NCBI GenBank assembly: GCA_963738475.1
Contig: CAVTWU010000029.1
Coordinates: 65,924-129,923 of the forward strand
DNA length: 64,000 bases
Reading direction: 5' to 3'
Origin: an uncultured Chloroflexia bacterium
GTDB lineage: Bacteria > Chloroflexota > Limnocylindria > Limnocylindrales > CSP1-4
Shown piece by piece: positions 40,228 through 48,856 of the stretch. The position numbers and the translations under genes are program-made. Numbering within the stretch: the first letter of the stretch is position 1; each line of letters opens with the position of its first letter. The notes under the pieces were generated by a model. It was not told the origin of the DNA. It made no database searches and saw nothing but the letters and a program-made list of their open reading frames with translations.

Positions 40228-42393
40228 TCACGAGGCGGAGCCGCCGCCTCCGCCCGCCGCCCGACGCGACTCCAGGTCCACGATCTCGCTCTGCGGGTAG
40301 GCGATCCGCGTGTGGTACATGCCCAGCAGCTGGCCGACGAACGCCTCGCGGATCAGCTCGAGGTCGCGCAGCGTCAGGTCGCACTCGTCGAACTGGTCGT
40401 CGTTGACGCGCTCTTCCATGATCCGGCTGACCATCGCGCGGATGGCGGGCTCGTCGCGCGAGGCGAGCGAGCGGACGGACGCCTCGACGCCATCGGCGAG
40501 CATGATCAGGGCGGCTTCCCGTGTCTGGGGCTTCGGGCCGGCGTGGCGGAACTTGCGCTCATCCACGGCCGCCGCGGCCTTGGCGCCCTCGGCCGTGCCG
40601 GCGCCGCCATACGGCGCCGCCGCCAGGTCCTTCGCCCGCGCGTAGAAGTAGCCCATGATCGCCGTCCCGTGGTGCTGCGGGATGTAGGCGATGAGGGCCT
40701 TGGGCAGCTTGGCCTTGTAGGCGAAGTCGATGCCGTCGGCGACGTGCTGCTTGACGACCTGGGCGCTGACCTCGGGGTCGAGCTCATCGTGGATGTTCTC
40801 GCCGCCGGCCTGGTTCTCGATGAACGCGAGCGGGTTCGCGAGCTTGCCGACGTCGTGGTAGTAGGCCGCGACACGGGTCACCAGCGGGTCGCCGCCGATC
40901 GCCTCGGCGGCGCGCTCGGCGAGGTTGCCCGACCATCAGCGAGTGGTGATAGGTCCCGGGCGTCTCGACCAGGAGCCGGCGCAGCAGCGGCTGCGACGGG
41001 TTCGCCAGCTCCAGGAGCTGGAAGACCGTGAGGATGCCGAAGACGGAACCGAGGACGGCGAACAGCCCGACCGCCGCCACGCCCGACCCGGCCGCGCTGG
41101 CCGCCGAGGCGAACCACAGTTCCAGCAGGCCCTGGATGTCGCGCGTCACCCAGCAGCGAGAAGACGGTGACGACCATCGCGTTGCACGATGAACACGGCC
41201 ACCGCGGCCTGGACGAAGACCTGCAGTCGGTCGCCCTTGCGGACGGCGATGATGCCGGCGACGCCGCCCAGGAACGTGTAGGTCGCGAACTCGAGCGAGC
41301 CGCCGTTCACCGCGCCACCGATGATCGCGATGATCGCGATGACGATCGTGGCGAGGGACGCGTCCAGCAGGATCGCCAGGAGCATGCCGATGGCGGCGGT
41401 CGGCAGGAAGAACTGGAGGATCGACCGGCCGGCCGTGACCTTCAGGGCGAGCGTCGCCCCGACGACCAGCACGCCGATCAGGAACAGGACGTTGTCGCGG
41501 TGCCAGAGGCCCGGTCGGAACCGCCAGATCCAGGCGAGCAGCATGCCGACCACCAGGAGCGACAACATGAACCAGCCGACGAAGACGTTCGGGCTGGGAC
41601 CTGCCACGCCCAGGCCGAGCGCGTCGATCTTCTCGATGTCCGCGGCCGTCAGCAGCGTCCCGTTCCGGACGATGACCTCGCGCTGGGCGATCTCGACCAC
41701 GATCGGCGCGACGGCGGCCTCGGCTCGATCCTCTGCCTGATCCGTGAGGAGCTGGCTGAACGACGAGTTCGGGACGACCAGGTCCCGGACCAGTTCCGCG
41801 GCGAGCATCCGCTGAGCGGCATCGAGGCCACCGGCCATCAGCCCGGTCAGCCGCGTCTTGGTGGCGGCGACTTCGGTGTCCAGCAGCTCCGTGCGCAGGA
41901 TCCCGTCGAGGACGCGAGCCGCCTCGGCTCGAACGGCCGCCCAGCCGTCGCCGTCGAGGCCCGCCAGCGTCGTGCTGGACGCCTCCGTGAGCGACGGCAT
42001 GACGGTCGCCAGGAGCACCGCACGCTCCTCCGGCGTCATGTCGGCGGCGTAGAGCGTGTCGATCGGCGAGACCTTGCGCTCGAACGCGAGGGCCTGTTCG
42101 GCCGCGATCGCGATCGCCTTCTCGCTCGTGAAGTCGTACTGCGGATCGACGCCCGCTCGAGCCTCGGCGCGGGCGGCGGCGGTCTGGACGTCGCTCTCGA
42201 ACTCGATCGCGGTCGGCGCGACGATGTCGGTCGGGGCGATATCGCCGACGGCCAGGGTCGTCGTCTCCTTGGGCAGGAAGTCGGCGCCGAGGATCGCGGT
42301 CATGGTCAGGACCAGGATCACGGACGCGATGGCGAGCCGCGTCGCATCGCTTCGCGTGAAGCGGGAGATCGAGGCCGCCCGGCTGGTCAGCAT
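40228..42393 (-). CDS. 7TM-HD phosphohydrolase (PgpH/YqfF-like cyclic-di-AMP phosphodiesterase), frameshifted
   Basis: Extracellular domain plus TM helices, PGTYHHSLMV, YYHDVGK, FIENQ, IPQHHGT, GPKPQTRE, LADGVEA. Confidence 0.9.
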
Positions 42394-42397
42394 GGCG

Positions 42398-42889
42398 TCA
42401 GTGGGTCCCACCGTCGTGGGCGGCGAGGTCCGCCCGGGCGAGGGCCTGGACGACGAGCTCGCTCACGTGCTTGCCGTCCGCCCGACCCTTGGTCTTCGGC
42501 GACAGCCAGCCCATGACCTTGCCCATGTCGCGGGCGGACGTCGCGCCGGTCGCGGCGATCCCCTCGTCCACGAGCGCGACGACCTCGGCCTCGGTCAGCG
42601 CCTGGGGCAGGTAGCCGCTCAGGATCTCGATCTCGGCGGCTTCCTTGTCGGCGAGGTCCTGGCGGCCGGCGCCCTCGAAGGCGACCACCGACTCGCGCCG
42701 GGTCTTCACCTCACGGGTCAGCACGCCCAGCATCTCGTCGTCGGTCAGGGCACGGCCCTGCTTCTTCTCGACGTTGTAGGCGGCACTCGACGCCATGCGC
42801 AGGACGTCACGACGCAACGCATCACCACTCCGCATGGCGGCGGCGATGTCGGTCTGGATCTGCTCTTGAAGGGACACCGGTTCTGGCAC
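42398..42889 (-). CDS. GatB/YqeY domain protein
   Basis: IAAAMRSGD..RRDVLRM, EVKTRRES, GRQDLADKE, YLPQALTEAE, DMGKVM, ADGK. Confidence 0.92.
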   Translation of the reverse strand: MPEPVSLQEQIQTDIAAAMRSGDALRRDVLRMASSAAYNVEKKQGRALTDDEMLGVLTREVKTRRESVVAFEGAGRQDLADKEAAEIEILSGYLPQALTEAEVVALVDEGIAATGATSARDMGKVMGWLSPKTKGRADGKHVSELVVQALARADLAAHDGGTH

Positions 42890-42985
42890 CTCGGGTAGAC
42901 GGATCGGCCGATGATTCGGTTTCACCGCCGTCGCACCCGCAGGGGATGCAGGGGTTGGTACGGGGCCCGTCACGCGGGCCGCCGT

Positions 42986-43171
42986 TCAGCCGACCTGCGT
43001 TCGGGCGTTCTTCTTGCGCTTGGCTTCCTTGCGCTTGCGCTTCACAGAGGGCTTCTCGTAGTGCTCGCGTCGGCGAGCTTCGGCGAGGATGCCGCTCTGC
43101 TGGATCTTCTTGTTGAAGCGACGCAGGGCGCTTTCGAACGTCTCGTTCTCACCCACTCGGACTTCTGCCAA
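42986..43171 (-). CDS. rpsU: 30S ribosomal protein S21
   Basis: [31 protein letters not shown]; TTG start behind a GGAGGTG RBS. Confidence 0.96.
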
Positions 43172-43274
43172 TCCCGGTTCACCTCCCCAGGCCTGGGGTC
43201 GTGTCTGTTCGCGTCGGGCTCGCGGCCAACCGGCCCGTGACGCCACTCAGGCGGTTCCCCACCAGAGCCGGCGG

Positions 43275-43303
43275 AGCATACCCCGAGGTGCAGGGTCGGT
43301 CAA
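43275..43303 (-). promoter_or_regulatory. Sigma70-type promoter for rpsU
   Basis: Minus strand TTGACC (43303-43298), 17-bp spacer, TATGCT (43280-43275). Confidence 0.75.
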
Positions 43304-43359
43304 ACAGTCTTGAGCTAGTCGAGGAAGCGGAACCCGGCGGGCACGTTCTCCAGGCCGCA

Positions 43360-43698
43360 TCAGCCGGGAAGCTGCTGGCCGAGCACGAAGATCCAGTACG
43401 CGTCCAGCACGACGACGACCGCCCAGAACCCGATGATCAGCGTCGGGCGCCGGAGGAAGCACTTGCTCCACGACACGCCGAGCGTGATCGAGCGGGCATA
43501 GAGCGCGATCGCGACGATCGCGACGATCAGCACGAACCAGGCTGGTCCGACCGCCCAGGCGATCAGCCCGATGGTGCCCATCCGGCAGAACGTGAACGCG
43601 AGCCGCTCGTACTTCTCGGGGCGGCTCAGGGGCGGCCGGACGTACGACCCGGGGCCGACGACCCCCGGGGTCAGCGACTCGCCATGCAGACTCGTCAT
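43360..43698 (-). CDS. Small membrane protein (about 3 TM), last gene of the radical SAM operon
   Basis: ATG overlaps the radical SAM stop; FTFCRMGTIGLIAW and WSKCFLRRP segments. Confidence 0.75.
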   Translation of the reverse strand: MTSLHGESLTPGVVGPGSYVRPPLSRPEKYERLAFTFCRMGTIGLIAWAVGPAWFVLIVAIVAIALYARSITLGVSWSKCFLRRPTLIIGFWAVVVVLDAYWIFVLGQQLPG

Positions 43699-45278
43699 CG
43701 ATGGTCCCCCGATGCCATCGCCGGGCTGGACGCCGGGACGGCGTCCAGAGCCACCAACCGACCCGCGGGCACCATCCCGGCCGATGTGCGCCTGCGGAGT
43801 TCTCCGAAGACCTGTCGCGCACAGAACGGGATCCGGACGGGGTTCCGCTCCCCGTCGGTGGAGCCCACGTGCACGCAGCACTGCTGCAGCCGTTCGACGT
43901 TGAGCGTCCACGGATCCATGAACGTCTTGATCGAGACGCGCTTGACCCGCAGGGCGATCTCGTCGAGCGGAGCGCTGCCCCGGTTCGTCAACCACCGGCC
44001 CAGGCCCTTGATGAACCCCGAGACGCCCAGGTCGCAGACCTCGCAGATGTCCAGGAGGTAGTCGATGACCTCTCGACGACTGACCATGGCTGTCTCCGAC
44101 AGAAGGCCCGTGAGTGACTCCCACAGGGCATCGTCCGGGGCGAGGCGATTGCCGAAGACCGCCATCCGCTCCTTGAGCCGATCCCGCCCGATGAGCTGGA
44201 CGATGGACCGATGCGACCCGTCGTCACCGCGGATGAAGTAGGTCAGCGACGAGCAATCCGGGTGACTGCATGGCAAGGCGATGAAGTCGTCCGGACCGAC
44301 TCGACCCTCCGTCTGCGCGCCGAGGCGACGGATGGTCCCGGTCGTCGTCGCCCGGGCCATCGGATCGACCGGGTTGGCCCGCCCGGCGGTGAACATCGGC
44401 TGGATGGCGACCCCGGCGATGTAATCGGTCGCGAAGGCATGATCGACGACGGCCCCCACCTCGTCGTCGTTGACCCCCGTGGCAACGGCCATCGCCAAGG
44501 TCGTGAAGATCCGCTCCCCGGTGAGGCGCCTGATCGCCTCCGCCTTCATCTCACGCAGATCCTCACCGCGGTGGAACAGGTGGGTCTCGAGGCGGAAGCC
44601 GTCGAACTGGAGGTACACCTCGACACGGTCCCGCAACCGCGCCAGGTCCGCCAGGAATCGGTCGTCGCGGACGATCCGGATCCCATTCGTGTTGAGCACG
44701 ACCCGGGTGACCTTGCGCTCCACGGCGGCCTCCAGGATCTGGACGATCTCCGGATGCACGGTCGGCTCACCGCCGGACAGCATCAGCGCGTCGACGTGGC
44801 CACCCTCGCGCTCGATCGCCGTGTCGAGCGATCGCAGGATGTGCGGCAGTCGGGCGTGACGGTTGTTCCCCGGTCCGCTGTCGGCGAAGCAGGTGGGGCA
44901 ATGCAGGTTGCAGTTCTGGGTGACGTCGAGCAGCAGGATGCAGCTGTGCTGGGTCTGCAGGTCGCCCAGGCCGTCGAGGTACCCCATCGGGATGGGCCTG
45001 ACATTGTCGGGAACGTCCGGCGTGATCTCGCGAGTGGGGATCCGCCAGTCCTGCAGACCCTGCCAGAGGGCGTAGTCCTCCTCGTACAGGCTCACCACCT
45101 CACCGTGGCCGCGCTGGCAGTGGCGGCGCAGGTAGACGGCGCCATCCATGGCCACCAGGTTCCCCTGGAGGACGTCGACCTCGTAGTCGATCTCGCGATC
45201 CGGGTCGTCGCTGAAGCACCGTCCGCAGATCGTCAGGACCATCCGGAGAGGCAGGTACGGCCGGAGGGCGAGCGTCAT
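43695..45278 (-). CDS. Radical SAM enzyme of the Tes/GDGT-MAS (MJ0619)-like family
   Basis: Intact 527 aa. N-terminal CGRC...HCQRGHG; CNLHCPTC; SGGEPTVHP; NTNG; VYLQFDG; PCSHPDC; C-terminal DPWTLNVERLQQCCVH...RIPFC. Confidence 0.8.
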   Translation of the reverse strand: MTLALRPYLPLRMVLTICGRCFSDDPDREIDYEVDVLQGNLVAMDGAVYLRRHCQRGHGEVVSLYEEDYALWQGLQDWRIPTREITPDVPDNVRPIPMGYLDGLGDLQTQHSCILLLDVTQNCNLHCPTCFADSGPGNNRHARLPHILRSLDTAIEREGGHVDALMLSGGEPTVHPEIVQILEAAVERKVTRVVLNTNGIRIVRDDRFLADLARLRDRVEVYLQFDGFRLETHLFHRGEDLREMKAEAIRRLTGERIFTTLAMAVATGVNDDEVGAVVDHAFATDYIAGVAIQPMFTAGRANPVDPMARATTTGTIRRLGAQTEGRVGPDDFIALPCSHPDCSSLTYFIRGDDGSHRSIVQLIGRDRLKERMAVFGNRLAPDDALWESLTGLLSETAMVSRREVIDYLLDICEVCDLGVSGFIKGLGRWLTNRGSAPLDEIALRVKRVSIKTFMDPWTLNVERLQQCCVHVGSTDGERNPVRIPFCARQVFGELRRRTSAGMVPAGRLVALDAVPASSPAMASGDHR

Positions 45279-45793
45279 GTCGACGCCGTGAATGGCAGGC
45301 AGAGACCGGCGACCCCGACGAGCAGGATGATCGGGATGGCCATGAGGATCACCACGGCCCGTGCCGACCGTTCCGGGTCAGGACGACCGCGGCGGATGAT
45401 CAGCACCGAGATGATCACGGTCAGCCCGAGCGCGAACGTGAGCACCCCAAGCAGGACAGGGCCCATCCCGTACTGGAACGCCCGCCCGAGGTAGATGACC
45501 GCGAACACGAGCCAGGTGATGCCATACGCCAGCAGGACGATGTTGCGGGCACGGGTCCGCACCGGGCCGAACCGCTGTCGCTCGGCCTCGTGCTCACCCG
45601 AGATGCGGATCGCCTCGTCGACCTCACCCGCGTCGTAGCCTGCCTGGAGCGCAGCCGAGCGCAGCGCTTCGATCGTGAACCGATCGCGCTCCTTGTCAAA
45701 GTGGCTGACCAACGTCAGCTGACGCCACGCCGCATTCGCATGGGGTGGGGCCTGGCGGGCGGCGGGAGCGGGATCCCTCGGCGATCCATCCAT
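45275..45793 (-). CDS. Membrane protein, paralog A (N-terminal helical domain, 3 TM, C-terminal GLC)
   Basis: GGAGGTGA RBS; FTIEALRSAALQAGYDAGEV; ends LLVGVAGLCLPFTAST; stop overlaps the radical SAM ATG. Confidence 0.75.
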   Translation of the reverse strand: MDGSPRDPAPAARQAPPHANAAWRQLTLVSHFDKERDRFTIEALRSAALQAGYDAGEVDEAIRISGEHEAERQRFGPVRTRARNIVLLAYGITWLVFAVIYLGRAFQYGMGPVLLGVLTFALGLTVIISVLIIRRGRPDPERSARAVVILMAIPIILLVGVAGLCLPFTAST

Positions 45794-45825
45794 GTATCAC
45801 CTCCTGACGTGCGCGCGACTGGCCG

Positions 45826-46284
45826 TCATCCGCGGCTGGAGCTGAGGCCAGCGACGCACAGGCCACTGAGCCCGACGAAGATGACCACGGAGATCGCGAA
45901 GGCGATCGCCACGGACGCGCACCCGTTATCGCGGGTCGGCGCCGAAGCGAGTCGATACAGGGAGTACAGGCCACCCGCGACCATCGCGACGGCATAGAGG
46001 GGCAGGATGAGAGGGGCCCCAGACCCCCACGAGGCGGCGGCGAGGGCCAGCAGGATGGCTGGGGCGTATGCGGTGAAGACGACGAACATCAGGAGCCCGG
46101 ACGCCACCCGGGTCCCGGTGTCCGCGGTCGGCGGACGTTGGCCCGCGTCGTAGGCCGACCAGGCGGCAGCGATCTCCGCCTGATCATGGCCGCTGGCTGC
46201 CAGCGAAGCGGTGATCGCCTCGCGCGTGAAGTGGGCATCGTGGTCCGCGATGTACCGGAGGGCCGTCTCGTCGGGCGTGCTCAT
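45826..46284 (-). CDS. Membrane protein, paralog B (N-terminal helical domain, 3 TM, C-terminal GLC)
   Basis: ATG overlaps the Lgt-like stop; FTREAITASLAASGHDQAEI; ends IFVGLSGLCVAGLSSSRG. Confidence 0.75.
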   Translation of the reverse strand: MSTPDETALRYIADHDAHFTREAITASLAASGHDQAEIAAAWSAYDAGQRPPTADTGTRVASGLLMFVVFTAYAPAILLALAAASWGSGAPLILPLYAVAMVAGGLYSLYRLASAPTRDNGCASVAIAFAISVVIFVGLSGLCVAGLSSSRG

Positions 46285-47102
46285 GGCTGGACCTCGATGA
46301 AGCCGTGAGGCGGCGGGGCGGCGGGGATCCGATAGGCGTCCCGCTGGATCTGCCGCAGGAAGTGGATGACGAGCAGGCCGACCATCGGGATGAGGACCCA
46401 CTGCGGTCCGGTCAGGCCCAGCGCCTGCGGCTCATTGCCGCGCACGAACTCGACCAGGAACCGGAACGTCCCGGCGGCCAGGAGGTACAGCTTCAACCCA
46501 TCGCCGGGCACGGGCACGCGCTCGCGATAGCGGATGATCAGGGCGATCGCCACGAGGTTGAACCCGATCTCATACAGCATCGACGGATGCATCGCCACGT
46601 CACATCCGGGGCACCGAGCGAATGCGGCGGCGACCTCCGGGCCGACGCTGATCCCCCATGGCAGCGTCGTCGGTGTCCCGAGCGGTAGCTCCGAGAAGAA
46701 GCAGCCGATCCGCCCGATGACCGTCGCGACAGGGATCGCCAGGAGATAGCAGTCGCCTGTCGAGCGGGTATAGCCGAAGGCCCGCTTCGTCAGGGCGATC
46801 GCGATGTAGCCACCGGCCAACGCGCCGAGGATGCTCTTGCCGCTGCGCTCGATGACTTCGCTGAATGGGCGGTCGGCGAGCGCGCCATAGACCTCGAGGT
46901 GCTCCCAGGACGTGATGACGCGAGCCCCGATCACGCCCCCGAGGACGGCGGCGAGTGAGATCCAGAGGATCGGCCCGTCGAGCCAGCGCCGTCTGCGTAA
47001 CTCGCGGTAGTAGATCCCGAGGCCGACCGACAGCGCGATGACCGTGAACGCGTCGTGCGTCATCACGGTCAGAGGACCCCACTCGAACAGGATCGGGTGC
47101 AT
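46281..47102 (-). CDS. Prolipoprotein diacylglyceryl transferase (Lgt)-family paralog
   Basis: MHPILF N-terminus, GGVIGAR, GRIGCF, TTLPWG, HPSMLYE, RFLVEFVR; the HGG signature is replaced by ILGA. Confidence 0.85.
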   Translation of the reverse strand: MHPILFEWGPLTVMTHDAFTVIALSVGLGIYYRELRRRRWLDGPILWISLAAVLGGVIGARVITSWEHLEVYGALADRPFSEVIERSGKSILGALAGGYIAIALTKRAFGYTRSTGDCYLLAIPVATVIGRIGCFFSELPLGTPTTLPWGISVGPEVAAAFARCPGCDVAMHPSMLYEIGFNLVAIALIIRYRERVPVPGDGLKLYLLAAGTFRFLVEFVRGNEPQALGLTGPQWVLIPMVGLLVIHFLRQIQRDAYRIPAAPPPHGFIEVQP

Positions 47103-47215
47103 GGACGCCACCCAACTTGCCGGGACATCGGAGGATCCAGCGCCCCCTCATGAAGGACGCGTCGTTCGTCCGGATGGTACGCCCCGGCGCAACAGCTGAG
47201 GCTTATCCTGTATCC

Positions 47216-48856
47216 GTGTCCGAGACCCTTCTGGGCCTGCTCGACGAAGCCGTGTCGCGGTACGGCGACAAGCCCGCGCTGAGCCTGCGCGCGGACGATG
47301 GCTCGACCAGCGACTGGAGCTTCCGCGAGCTCGAGCGACGAGGGCGCCTCGCCGCCTGGCGCCTGCGGGCCCTCGGCCTGGAACCCGGCGACCGCGTCCT
47401 GACCTGGTCCCCGTCCATGCCGGAACTGGCGGCGGCCTACTTCGGGGCCATGCGTGCGCGCCTGATCTACGTGCCGCTGGACCTGCGCATGTCGACCGAG
47501 GCCGTCGAGGCGATCGTCCGCACGAGCGAGTCGCGCCACCTGATCCTGGGCACCGGACGCGACGCGCCGGACCCGCGCGAAGCTCGACTCGAACACTTCC
47601 CCACGACGACGCTCGAGGCCCTGTGCGCCGAACCCGCCGACGACGACCCGCTCTTCCCGCCCGACTGGGAGGCGCACCAGGCCGCCTGGGAGTCGCCGAC
47701 ACCCGACGAGATCTTCCAGCTCGTCTTCACGTCCGGCACGACCGGCACGCCGAAGGGCGTGATGCTCGCCCACGACAACCTGCTGGCCTCGATCGAGTCC
47801 TTCCACGCGGTCATGCCGCACCTGGAGCATCGGATCGTGTCGCTGCTGCCCCTGTCGCACCTGCTCGAGCAGGCGGTCGGGCTGTTCTACGCGCTGAGCG
47901 TCGGGGCCGACGTCCTGTACGTCCGCAGCCGCAACCCACGCGTCATCTTCGATGCCCTGCGCGACCACGAGGTCACCTCGATGGTCGTGGTGCCGCAGGT
48001 CCTGGACCTGTTCTGGAGCGCCATCACGCGCGAGGTCGAGAAGCGCGGGAAGACCGCGTCGTTCGATCGCCTTCGGGGGATCGCCCGTCATCTCCCGATG
48101 GCGATCCGGCGGATGCTGTTCGGCAGCGTCCACAAGCAGATCGGCGGGCACCTGCGCCTGTTCGTGTCGTCCGGGGCGTTCCTGCCGCCGGCGCTGCAGC
48201 AGGGCTGGGAGGACCTCGGCGTCATCGTCATGCAGGGCTACGGCGCCACGGAGACCGGGACCGGCAGCTGCACGACGCTGGACGATCACGGCCTCGGGAC
48301 GGTGGGGCGGCCACCGGCCGGGATCCAGATGCGCCTCGCCGAGGATGGCGAAGTCCAGTTCAAGGGCCGGCCGGTGTTCAAGGGCTACTGGCGGAACCCC
48401 GAAGCGACGGCCGCCGCCTTCACCGAGGACGGCTGGTACCACACCGGCGACATCGGCCACCTCGACGACGAGGGCCGCCTGATCCTGTCGGGCCGGATGA
48501 AGGACATCATCGTCCTGCCGAACGGCTTCAACGTCTATCCCGAGGATCTCGAGAACGCCCTCCGCATCGCCGGCATCCGCGACTCGGTCGTGCTCGAGAC
48601 GAAGCCCGGTCGCATCGAGGCCATCGTGCTCGCCGGCACGACGCTCGGCGCCACGCCCGACCCGGCCGAGATCCGCGCGCGACTCGATGCCGCCGTGAAG
48701 GCCGCCAACGCGACGCTGGGACCGAACCAGCGGATCGCCGGCTGGCGCCTGTGGCCCGAGGACGACTTCCCGCGCACCCACACGCTCAAGGTGAAGCGCC
48801 CGCTCGTGCGCGCCTGGGCCGACGTCGAGGCGGCGCTGCCCGTCCAGGCCTCGTAG
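47216..48856 (+). CDS. Long-chain acyl-CoA ligase (AMP-binding)
   Basis: FTSGTTGTPKGV, LPLSHLLE, QGYGATE, GWYHTGDIG, GRMKDII, NVYPEDLE; GTG start six nt after TATCCT. Confidence 0.9.
   Translation: MSETLLGLLDEAVSRYGDKPALSLRADDGSTSDWSFRELERRGRLAAWRLRALGLEPGDRVLTWSPSMPELAAAYFGAMRARLIYVPLDLRMSTEAVEAIVRTSESRHLILGTGRDAPDPREARLEHFPTTTLEALCAEPADDDPLFPPDWEAHQAAWESPTPDEIFQLVFTSGTTGTPKGVMLAHDNLLASIESFHAVMPHLEHRIVSLLPLSHLLEQAVGLFYALSVGADVLYVRSRNPRVIFDALRDHEVTSMVVVPQVLDLFWSAITREVEKRGKTASFDRLRGIARHLPMAIRRMLFGSVHKQIGGHLRLFVSSGAFLPPALQQGWEDLGVIVMQGYGATETGTGSCTTLDDHGLGTVGRPPAGIQMRLAEDGEVQFKGRPVFKGYWRNPEATAAAFTEDGWYHTGDIGHLDDEGRLILSGRMKDIIVLPNGFNVYPEDLENALRIAGIRDSVVLETKPGRIEAIVLAGTTLGATPDPAEIRARLDAAVKAANATLGPNQRIAGWRLWPEDDFPRTHTLKVKRPLVRAWADVEAALPVQAS

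Follow-up and report, generated by a model that had tools for sequence, protein, structure and literature searches.

What does a bacterium do with an Lgt-family protein whose catalytic signature has been rewritten? The question is raised by a gene in a 64,000-nucleotide stretch of DNA from an uncultured Chloroflexia bacterium (contig CAVTWU010000029.1 of assembly GCA_963738475.1; this whole stretch is called the window below). Lgt is regarded as an enzyme with one function and one gene copy and as a target for antibiotics, and paralogs of it tend to be written off as weak duplicates. A first-pass annotation, made from the sequence alone, had described the gene as an Lgt paralog with an altered signature, probably not the housekeeping enzyme, and had suggested a changed acceptor or donor specificity. 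We find that the paralog is accessory, and that it very probably belongs to a conserved module of three parts: the Lgt-like protein, a radical S-adenosylmethionine (rSAM) enzyme resembling the archaeal tetraether synthase GDGT-MAS/Tes, and small membrane proteins with a cysteine near the C-terminus. This genomic context, absent from the first-pass annotation, is the main clue to function.

In the window, the module occupies a minus-strand unit of four genes, in which the Lgt-like gene is followed by the genes for small proteins A and B and by the rSAM gene. Stop and start codons overlap as ATGA at the Lgt-like/A and B/rSAM junctions, and an AGGAGG lies 5 bases before the ATG of B. Because of the overlaps at two junctions and the Shine–Dalgarno sequence at the third, the four genes are predicted to form a single translationally coupled, co-transcribed operon. 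The features by which the module is recognised are all present here: an Lgt-like protein with the replacements Y26H and N146C (E. coli numbering) and its arginines retained, an adjacent same-strand rSAM enzyme of the Tes family, and small proteins carrying a G-x-C box.

Within the genus, the holders of the Lgt paralog are exactly the holders of the rSAM gene, the identical 5 of 24 relatives carrying both. A wider survey covered 80 loci in genomes chosen as species representatives (Limnocylindria, Chloroflexia, Thermomicrobiales, Anaerolineae and others), with Lgt-like proteins of 55–85% identity. The rSAM gene lies downstream in the same orientation in 76 of these Chloroflexota loci, and the other four end at a contig edge shortly after the Lgt-like gene; the complete trio is present in at least 74 of the 80. 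When open reading frames (ORFs) were clustered over all 80 loci, just three widely conserved families emerged, namely the Lgt-like protein (75 loci), the rSAM enzyme (73 loci) and the small membrane protein. The linkage of the two enzymes is still present at 36–45% identity. Relatives sampled via a ‘Rubrobacter’ metagenome-assembled genome (MAG), in order to reach other phyla, appear to be Chloroflexota again. In a sample of 301 genomes, the 10 that contain the paralog all fall among the 33 that contain an rSAM homolog (one of these 33, G272, is flagged as unpublished, and no claim depends on it).

The same arrangement was found in independently annotated sequences from other phyla. The Mycobacterium avium plasmid pS2b and the M. 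branderi plasmid pJCM12687 encode an Lgt-family protein, two small hypothetical proteins and a radical SAM protein. The gene order in Nonomuraea gerenzanensis is small protein, Lgt-like, rSAM, and in the Bacteroidota Chondrinema litorale and Persicobacter psychrovividus it is Lgt-like, rSAM, small protein. The actinomycete paralogs (Mycobacterium, Nonomuraea) carry His at the Tyr26 site, GRIGCH and the CPGC pair, and thus the Y26H and N146C signature. The module is therefore confirmed in at least three phyla: Chloroflexota, actinomycetes (including mycobacterial plasmids) and Bacteroidota. Full-text literature searches (tetraether/radical SAM/diacylglyceryl transferase, TrsS, Tes homologs and the neighbours of MSMEG_5406–5410) found no description of an Lgt–rSAM pairing, and the papers on Tes and bacterial Tes homologs that they returned contained no mention of an Lgt partner.

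Table 1. Features of the four-gene unit and of its Lgt-like protein (window coordinates).
Feature	Position	Strand	Basis
Lgt-family paralog P0001, 273 amino acids, operon gene 1	46281–47102	minus	Pfam LGT, AlphaFold2 model, PDB match 5AZB
His16, opposite E. coli Tyr26	47055–47057	minus	alignment; invariant in subfamily
SGKSILGA, opposite E. coli GGMSFHGG; H103 replaced by Leu92	46821–46844	minus	phmmer, MAFFT
GRIGCF, opposite GRLGNF; Arg131 (R143) kept, Cys134 replaces N146	46698–46715	minus	phmmer, MAFFT
CPGC (Cys164–Cys167), extracytoplasmic head loop before HPSMLYE	46602–46613	minus	coordinate check
HPSMLYE, equivalent to E. coli HPSQLYE	46569–46589	minus	phmmer, coordinate check
RFLVEFVR; R214, E218, R221 equivalent to R239, E243, R246	46440–46463	minus	phmmer, MAFFT
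Small protein A, three predicted transmembrane helices, 152 amino acids; tail GLSGLC143VAGLSSSRG	45826–46284	minus	family alignment
Cys143 of small protein A, conserved tail Cys (G-x-C box)	45856–45858	minus	alignment
Small protein B, three predicted transmembrane helices, 172 amino acids, tandem paralog of A; tail VAGLC165LPFTAST	45275–45793	minus	family alignment
Cys165 of small protein B, conserved tail Cys and only Cys of B	45299–45301	minus	alignment
GDGT-MAS/Tes-family radical-SAM enzyme, 527 amino acids	43695–45278	minus	7TOL homology, NCBIfam scores

The accessory status of the paralog follows from two observations: a canonical lgt is present on another contig, and among 25 genus genomes searched (the window's included) only 6 have an orthologue of the paralog, which is not the distribution of a housekeeping gene. 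In the five others of 24, its identity is 68–86%. Most of the remaining genus genomes, four of them >90% complete, have just a canonical-type match of ~30% identity, and five incomplete ones have no match. The window's genome, a MAG of 3.7 Mb in 30 contigs and 60% complete, contains four matches to PF01790. These are the canonical copy on contig C17, the target paralog and two near-identical copies of a third type. The canonical copy scores 195.5 bits against Pfam LGT (106.6 for the target) and has GWYGLGY, GLGVYGG, ARWGNF, Y26, E151 and Y235. A higher-scoring canonical Lgt was likewise found in 4 of the 5 other module-bearing genomes tested, the remaining one being a 1.9-Mb MAG. In a FastTree phylogeny built from 156 members of the Lgt family, the canonical copies from this genome and its relatives form a separate clade, and the target falls within a 64-row clade with 100% support, nested in a 116-row clade with 99% support that contains every rSAM-linked sequence. 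The earlier suspicion that this is not the housekeeping Lgt thus holds on three counts, the separate lgt, the phylogeny and the accessory distribution.

The canonical lgt itself appears damaged in this draft. At L001:1303–2281 (contig C17, minus strand) an extra G follows codon 17, compared with the uninterrupted gene of relatives (MLDFIPNPVLIQLGPIT / IGWYGL; LGPIT/G/IGWYGL), so that its N-terminal 17 codons lie in a different frame from the remainder. Three other genes are broken in similar ways. The lspA gene (signal peptidase II, PF01252; contig C28:674009–674420) is in two pieces 4 bases apart and in two frames, covering profile positions 2–85 and 87–141, which suggests a frameshift. In the window itself, a gene for a PgpH-like seven-transmembrane receptor/HD hydrolase is split into two minus-strand pieces (40228–40881 and 41146–42411), which in five relatives form a single frame of 719–791 amino acids; this is probably another assembly indel. 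The third-type Lgt copies, at L003:1354–2322 (contig C15) and L004:1396–2169 (C10), lack equivalents of R143 and R239 (GVGKFT, EPSQAYE). In both cases the neighbour is a BTAD-domain regulator, and relative to the copy on C15 that on C10 is frameshifted. They resemble an arginine-less subgroup described previously (bioRxiv 10.1101/2025.03.27.645668). Since lspA, the PgpH-like gene and one third-type copy are likewise split, the frameshift in the canonical lgt is a probable assembly error. Together the split genes suggest an indel-prone assembly, which may explain the completeness estimate of 60%.

The ORF of the paralog extends in frame to a GTG at 47111 (46281–47111); the start at the ATG at 47102, as first annotated, is correct because it matches the MHP start shared by relatives and the P0001 entry. 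The protein matches Pfam LGT with 106.6 bits (gathering threshold 24.9), its residues 6–250 covering profile positions 1–237 of 240. An AlphaFold2 model built on 74 relatives (predicted local distance difference test 92.1, predicted template-modelling score 0.86) has E. coli Lgt 5AZB as its sole significant PDB match (E = 1.6e-7, TM-scores 0.66/0.63), placing it in the Lgt fold. All seven NCBIfam lgt models, by contrast, score it below their cut-offs (for example TIGR00544, 53.7 vs 118.9; NF000778, 64.4 vs 334).

Motifs were placed by two alignments, one made with phmmer to E. coli Lgt 5AZB and the other a MAFFT alignment of the family including MG1655 lgt. Both agree with the first-pass description of the signature. 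GRIG, HPSxLYE and RFxxEFxR are retained (as GRIG, HPSMLYE and RFLVEFVR, also by coordinate check), SGKSILGA stands opposite GGMSFHGG, GNF has become GCF through the replacement of N146 by C134, and CPGC lies in the loop before HPSMLYE. In the SGKSILGA segment, G104 is kept and G105 is replaced by Ala, besides the change of H103 to L92. Two more substitutions, Y26 to H16 and Y235 to A210, had been missed, and the equivalent of E151, E138, is kept but lies one residue nearer to Cys134 than E151 does to N146. Of the 13 residues of the published Lgt motif (Y26, H103, G104, G142, R143, G145, N146, E151, G154, Y235, R239, E243 and R246; bioRxiv 10.1101/2025.03.27.645668), the paralog thus keeps 9, with E151 shifted by one, and departs from the motif by Y26H, H103L, N146C and Y235A. 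According to the same study, Y26, H103, R143, N146, G154 and R239 are essential in E. coli Lgt; Y26 and N146 act in phosphatidylglycerol entry, H103 in positioning of the protein substrate, and R143 and R239 in positioning of the phosphate.

Among 16 relatives, down to 28% identity, H16, R131, C134, E138, H172/P173, Y177/E178, R214, E218 and R221 are invariant, and the substitutions are for this reason family traits rather than chance. The phosphate-positioning arginines, R131 and R214, are invariant across all 74 aligned relatives. Since the replacements His16 and Cys134 are themselves invariant and R131, E138, R214, E218 and R221 are strictly kept, the pattern is that of an active site re-tuned and not decaying. 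The C-x-x-C of the head loop is kept by most members of the subfamily, those of Mycobacterium and Nonomuraea included, and the CPGC pair most likely forms an extracytoplasmic disulfide, either structural or thiol-handling. The protein thus belongs to the Lgt superfamily by fold and domain, but the name of the enzyme Lgt should not be given to it, because it departs from the motif, from the equivalog models and from a housekeeping distribution. The proposal that its acceptor or donor specificity may be altered is likewise supported.

The second part of the module, the small membrane protein, offers a candidate acceptor. With no composition filter applied, 74 of 76 loci show one or more membrane ORFs between the genes of the two enzymes, and two or three copies are present in 21 of the 76, a pattern typical of substrates. 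A cysteine occurs within the last 25 residues of 96 of 99 such ORFs, where the Cys content of the rest of these proteins would predict ~10%. In 79 of the 96 the residue at position –2 of the tail Cys is Gly, the median number of residues after this Cys is 10, and 57 of the 99 proteins contain a single Cys. The Chloroflexota proteins are ~150–320 amino acids long with three predicted helices and the G-x-C box in the last, and their family alignment reveals a shared N-terminal motif, Y..NR..YT.EALR...AGY...EI.AAW. This motif is missing from the small proteins (64–197 amino acids) of distant Chloroflexota, actinomycetes and Bacteroidota, which still show a positively charged loop, followed by the last helix and a near-terminal Cys, usually as G-x-C (tails such as FGTCISATQW, SAGICTGLNPAMYTWR and GAGVCGSFF; two distant Chloroflexota tails have LWC and AVC). 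Common to the small proteins generally are just the charged loop, the last membrane helix and the G-x-C box ~10 residues from the end. Since the positively charged loop precedes it, the last helix would run from inside to outside by the positive-inside rule, placing the Cys at the outer face of the membrane, the side of the Lgt active site. By analogy, this layout resembles that of a lipoprotein signal peptide, and the Cys may be positioned like the lipobox Cys of a prolipoprotein. The small gene is tandemly duplicated in the window (45275–46284); the genus relatives examined have one copy between the Lgt-like and rSAM genes.

The third part, the rSAM enzyme, is homologous over its full length to the archaeal tetraether synthase GDGT-MAS (7TOL; E = 1.5e-33, residues 40–488 vs 39–492). 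It contains N-terminal zinc-ribbon cysteines, the CxxxCxxC motif (CNLHCPTC at residues 123–130; C123/C127/C130) and the C-terminal CC..H and FC motifs, as do the members of that family. Its scores are under the NCBIfam cut-offs for both Tes (NF045702, 175.4 vs 450) and TrsS (217.2 vs 490), and hence it belongs to neither named family. In the rSAM tree, a clade of 22 with 100% support, all Lgt-linked, mirrors the Lgt-like clade, and the trees of the two proteins alike contain a clade with 100% support that unites the Chloroflexota and mycobacterial copies. An association of every Tes-like rSAM enzyme with an Lgt-family protein was also considered and is rejected, as 15 of 16 distant Chloroflexota rSAM genes have no Lgt-family ORF nearby (within at most 4 kb either side, the upstream part being truncated at a contig edge in a few cases). 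A second subfamily of Tes-like rSAM enzymes, 31–36% identical and without an Lgt-family neighbour, comprises L136–L149 from other Chloroflexota and L151 from a Mycolicibacterium vanbaalenii plasmid; the neighbours of the latter are a methyltransferase, CcdA and a disulfide oxidoreductase.

Given these three parts, we hypothesize, at just short of an even chance, that the paralog is a dedicated Lgt-like transferase that lipidates the tail Cys of the co-encoded small proteins, and that the Tes-like rSAM enzyme remodels the lipid tails. A dedicated transferase is proposed because the arginines and the helix-6 Glu/Arg cluster are kept while the residues of lipid entry and substrate positioning are replaced by invariant ones. 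The paralog would, like Lgt, use a phospholipid as donor on the outer side of the membrane and transfer its (di)acylglyceryl group to the G-x-C cysteine, at the thiol. The cytoplasmic rSAM enzyme would act on the lipid tails, whether still in the donor or already attached to the protein, forming, by analogy with Tes, a C–C bond at unactivated tail carbons. The product would be a protein-linked macrocyclic or membrane-spanning lipid. A more specific and more doubtful version, which we would call no better than possible, is a new class of lipid-linked protein or peptide. In this class, the tail Cys would carry a thioether-linked glycerolipid, and the rSAM enzyme would weld the tails of this lipid either together or onto a lipid in the other leaflet. 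The protein would thereby be stitched covalently to a lipid that is macrocyclic or spans the membrane, and a lipopeptide of ~10 residues would result if a signal-peptidase-II-like cut follows.

Several points weigh against a lipidation system of this kind. The G-x-C box has its small residue at –2, while the canonical lipobox L-[AS]-[GA]-C has it at –1, and the conserved Cys could instead be catalytic, metal-binding or redox-active. With the rSAM enzyme in the cytoplasm and the Cys facing outward, a direct encounter between the two is unlikely. No Lgt–rSAM fusion was found with this query among longer relatives, where a search for longer proteins gave four and other long ones were scanned with Pfam. 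Among the candidates, P0272 (786 amino acids) is a spurious read-through with no similarity to rSAM, P0271 joins a PD40 segment to an Lgt domain, and proteins of 550–575 amino acids contain the LGT domain only. Lastly, the Y26H/N146C homolog of Mycolicibacterium smegmatis is reported not to complement a Corynebacterium glutamicum lgt mutant, and it is described as having ‘presumed low activity’ (bioRxiv 10.1101/2025.03.27.645668), which fits a different substrate and equally fits a weak enzyme.

A pathway acting on lipids only would dispense with a protein acceptor. The paralog would transfer diacylglyceryl or glyceryl from one lipid to another, or to a small molecule, and so create a new headgroup or an ether link. 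Tails would be joined by the Tes-like enzyme into membrane-spanning or macrocyclic lipids, and the small proteins would be scaffolds or regulators tethering the soluble rSAM enzyme to the membrane enzyme. Tes-family enzymes do act on lipids, and their bacterial homologs have been proposed in the literature to produce membrane-spanning lipids. The changed residues of the paralog include both of those assigned to lipid entry (10.1101/2025.03.27.645668), and the conserved N-terminal motif of the Chloroflexota small proteins, predicted to be cytoplasmic, could dock the rSAM enzyme. However, the small proteins of Mycobacterium and Bacteroidota (64–118 amino acids) lack this motif, the sole feature conserved across phyla being the tail Cys, and tandem multi-copy small genes suit substrates better than scaffolds. 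We consider this pathway unlikely.

Distinctly more improbable is that the paralog is a second general Lgt, redundant or condition-specific, which modifies ordinary lipobox proteins beside an incidental rSAM neighbour. Such a role would agree with the 9 of 13 motif positions kept, R143 and R239 among them, and with the frameshift of the canonical lgt in this draft; in M. smegmatis, lipoprotein labelling persists after loss of the main Lgt, for which the authors suggest redundancy through the second homolog, MSMEG_5408. But linkage to an rSAM enzyme and Cys-tailed proteins in 76 of 80 loci and in three phyla speaks against it, E. coli Lgt cannot do without Y26, H103 and N146 (10.1101/2025.03.27.645668), the paralog is accessory in its distribution, and the canonical frameshift is probably an assembly artefact like those in lspA, the PgpH-like gene and the duplicated Lgt-like copy. 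Least probable of all is that the paralog has lost catalysis and serves the rSAM enzyme as a chaperone or membrane adaptor, merely by binding lipid or protein: three residues essential in E. coli are indeed replaced, but His16 and Cys134 are invariant, and R131, E138, R214, E218 and R221 are strictly conserved in relatives as distant as 28% identity.

The flanks of the module show it to be a cassette, present or absent as a block between yqeY and an acyl-CoA synthetase gene, which adjoin each other where the cassette is missing. The acyl-CoA synthetase gene (47117–48856, plus strand) was considered as a further part of the system and rejected, as it stays beside yqeY in relatives lacking the cassette. 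Between the rSAM stop codon and yqeY lie ~720 bases without a convincing gene (42974–43694), which include the only sigma-70-like promoter match of the region (43303–43275, minus strand); it would serve yqeY.

Compared with known systems, the paralog shares with E. coli Lgt (b2828; 5AZB/5AZC; PF01790; TIGR00544; EC 2.5.1.145) its family and its seven-helix fold with a head domain (TM-score 0.66, 23% identity), the residues R143, R239, E243, R246, G104, G142, G145 and G154 with HPSxLYE, and a predicted active side at the outer face. It differs in the replacements Y26H, H103L, N146C and Y235A, in the extra CPGC of the head loop, in its sub-cut-off NCBIfam scores, and in being an accessory gene beside a canonical copy, encoded with a Tes-like rSAM enzyme and G-x-C small proteins rather than standing alone. 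Closer in signature is MSMEG_5408, the second Lgt homolog of M. smegmatis, which carries Y26H and N146C, is non-essential and has ‘presumed low Lgt activity’ (bioRxiv 10.1101/2025.03.27.645668). The comparison with the target is by this signature, published once and for this homolog, and the literature found on MSMEG_5408 makes no link to a radical-SAM enzyme. The mycobacterial plasmid copies share the Y26H/N146C signature with MSMEG_5408 and also have the CPGC pair and the rSAM neighbour.

The rSAM partner resembles GDGT-MAS/Tes (Methanocaldococcus jannaschii MJ0619; 7TOL/7TOM; NF045702) in its full-length homology, zinc ribbon, CxxxCxxC, CC..H and FC, but is bacterial, linked to an Lgt paralog and far below the family cut-off (175 bits vs 450). 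The archaeal AliA/AliB of Haloferax volcanii offer a functional parallel, as cysteine-lipidating membrane enzymes with conserved arginines that are adapted to unusual lipids according to the literature. They have no detectable Lgt fold match, whereas the target is a clear Lgt homolog, and the archaeal system has no radical-SAM partner.

One large clade of Lgt paralogs, in soil Chloroflexota, actinomycetes and Bacteroidota, is thus locked to a tetraether-synthase-like radical enzyme and to Cys-tailed mini-proteins. This gives bacterial Tes homologs, which have been without an assigned function, a concrete genetic context, and it suggests how the second Lgt of M. smegmatis, so far a puzzle, might be explained. 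The three-gene system may reveal a new protein–lipid linkage or a route to membrane-spanning lipids, which would be relevant to brGDGT (branched glycerol dialkyl glycerol tetraether) proxies.

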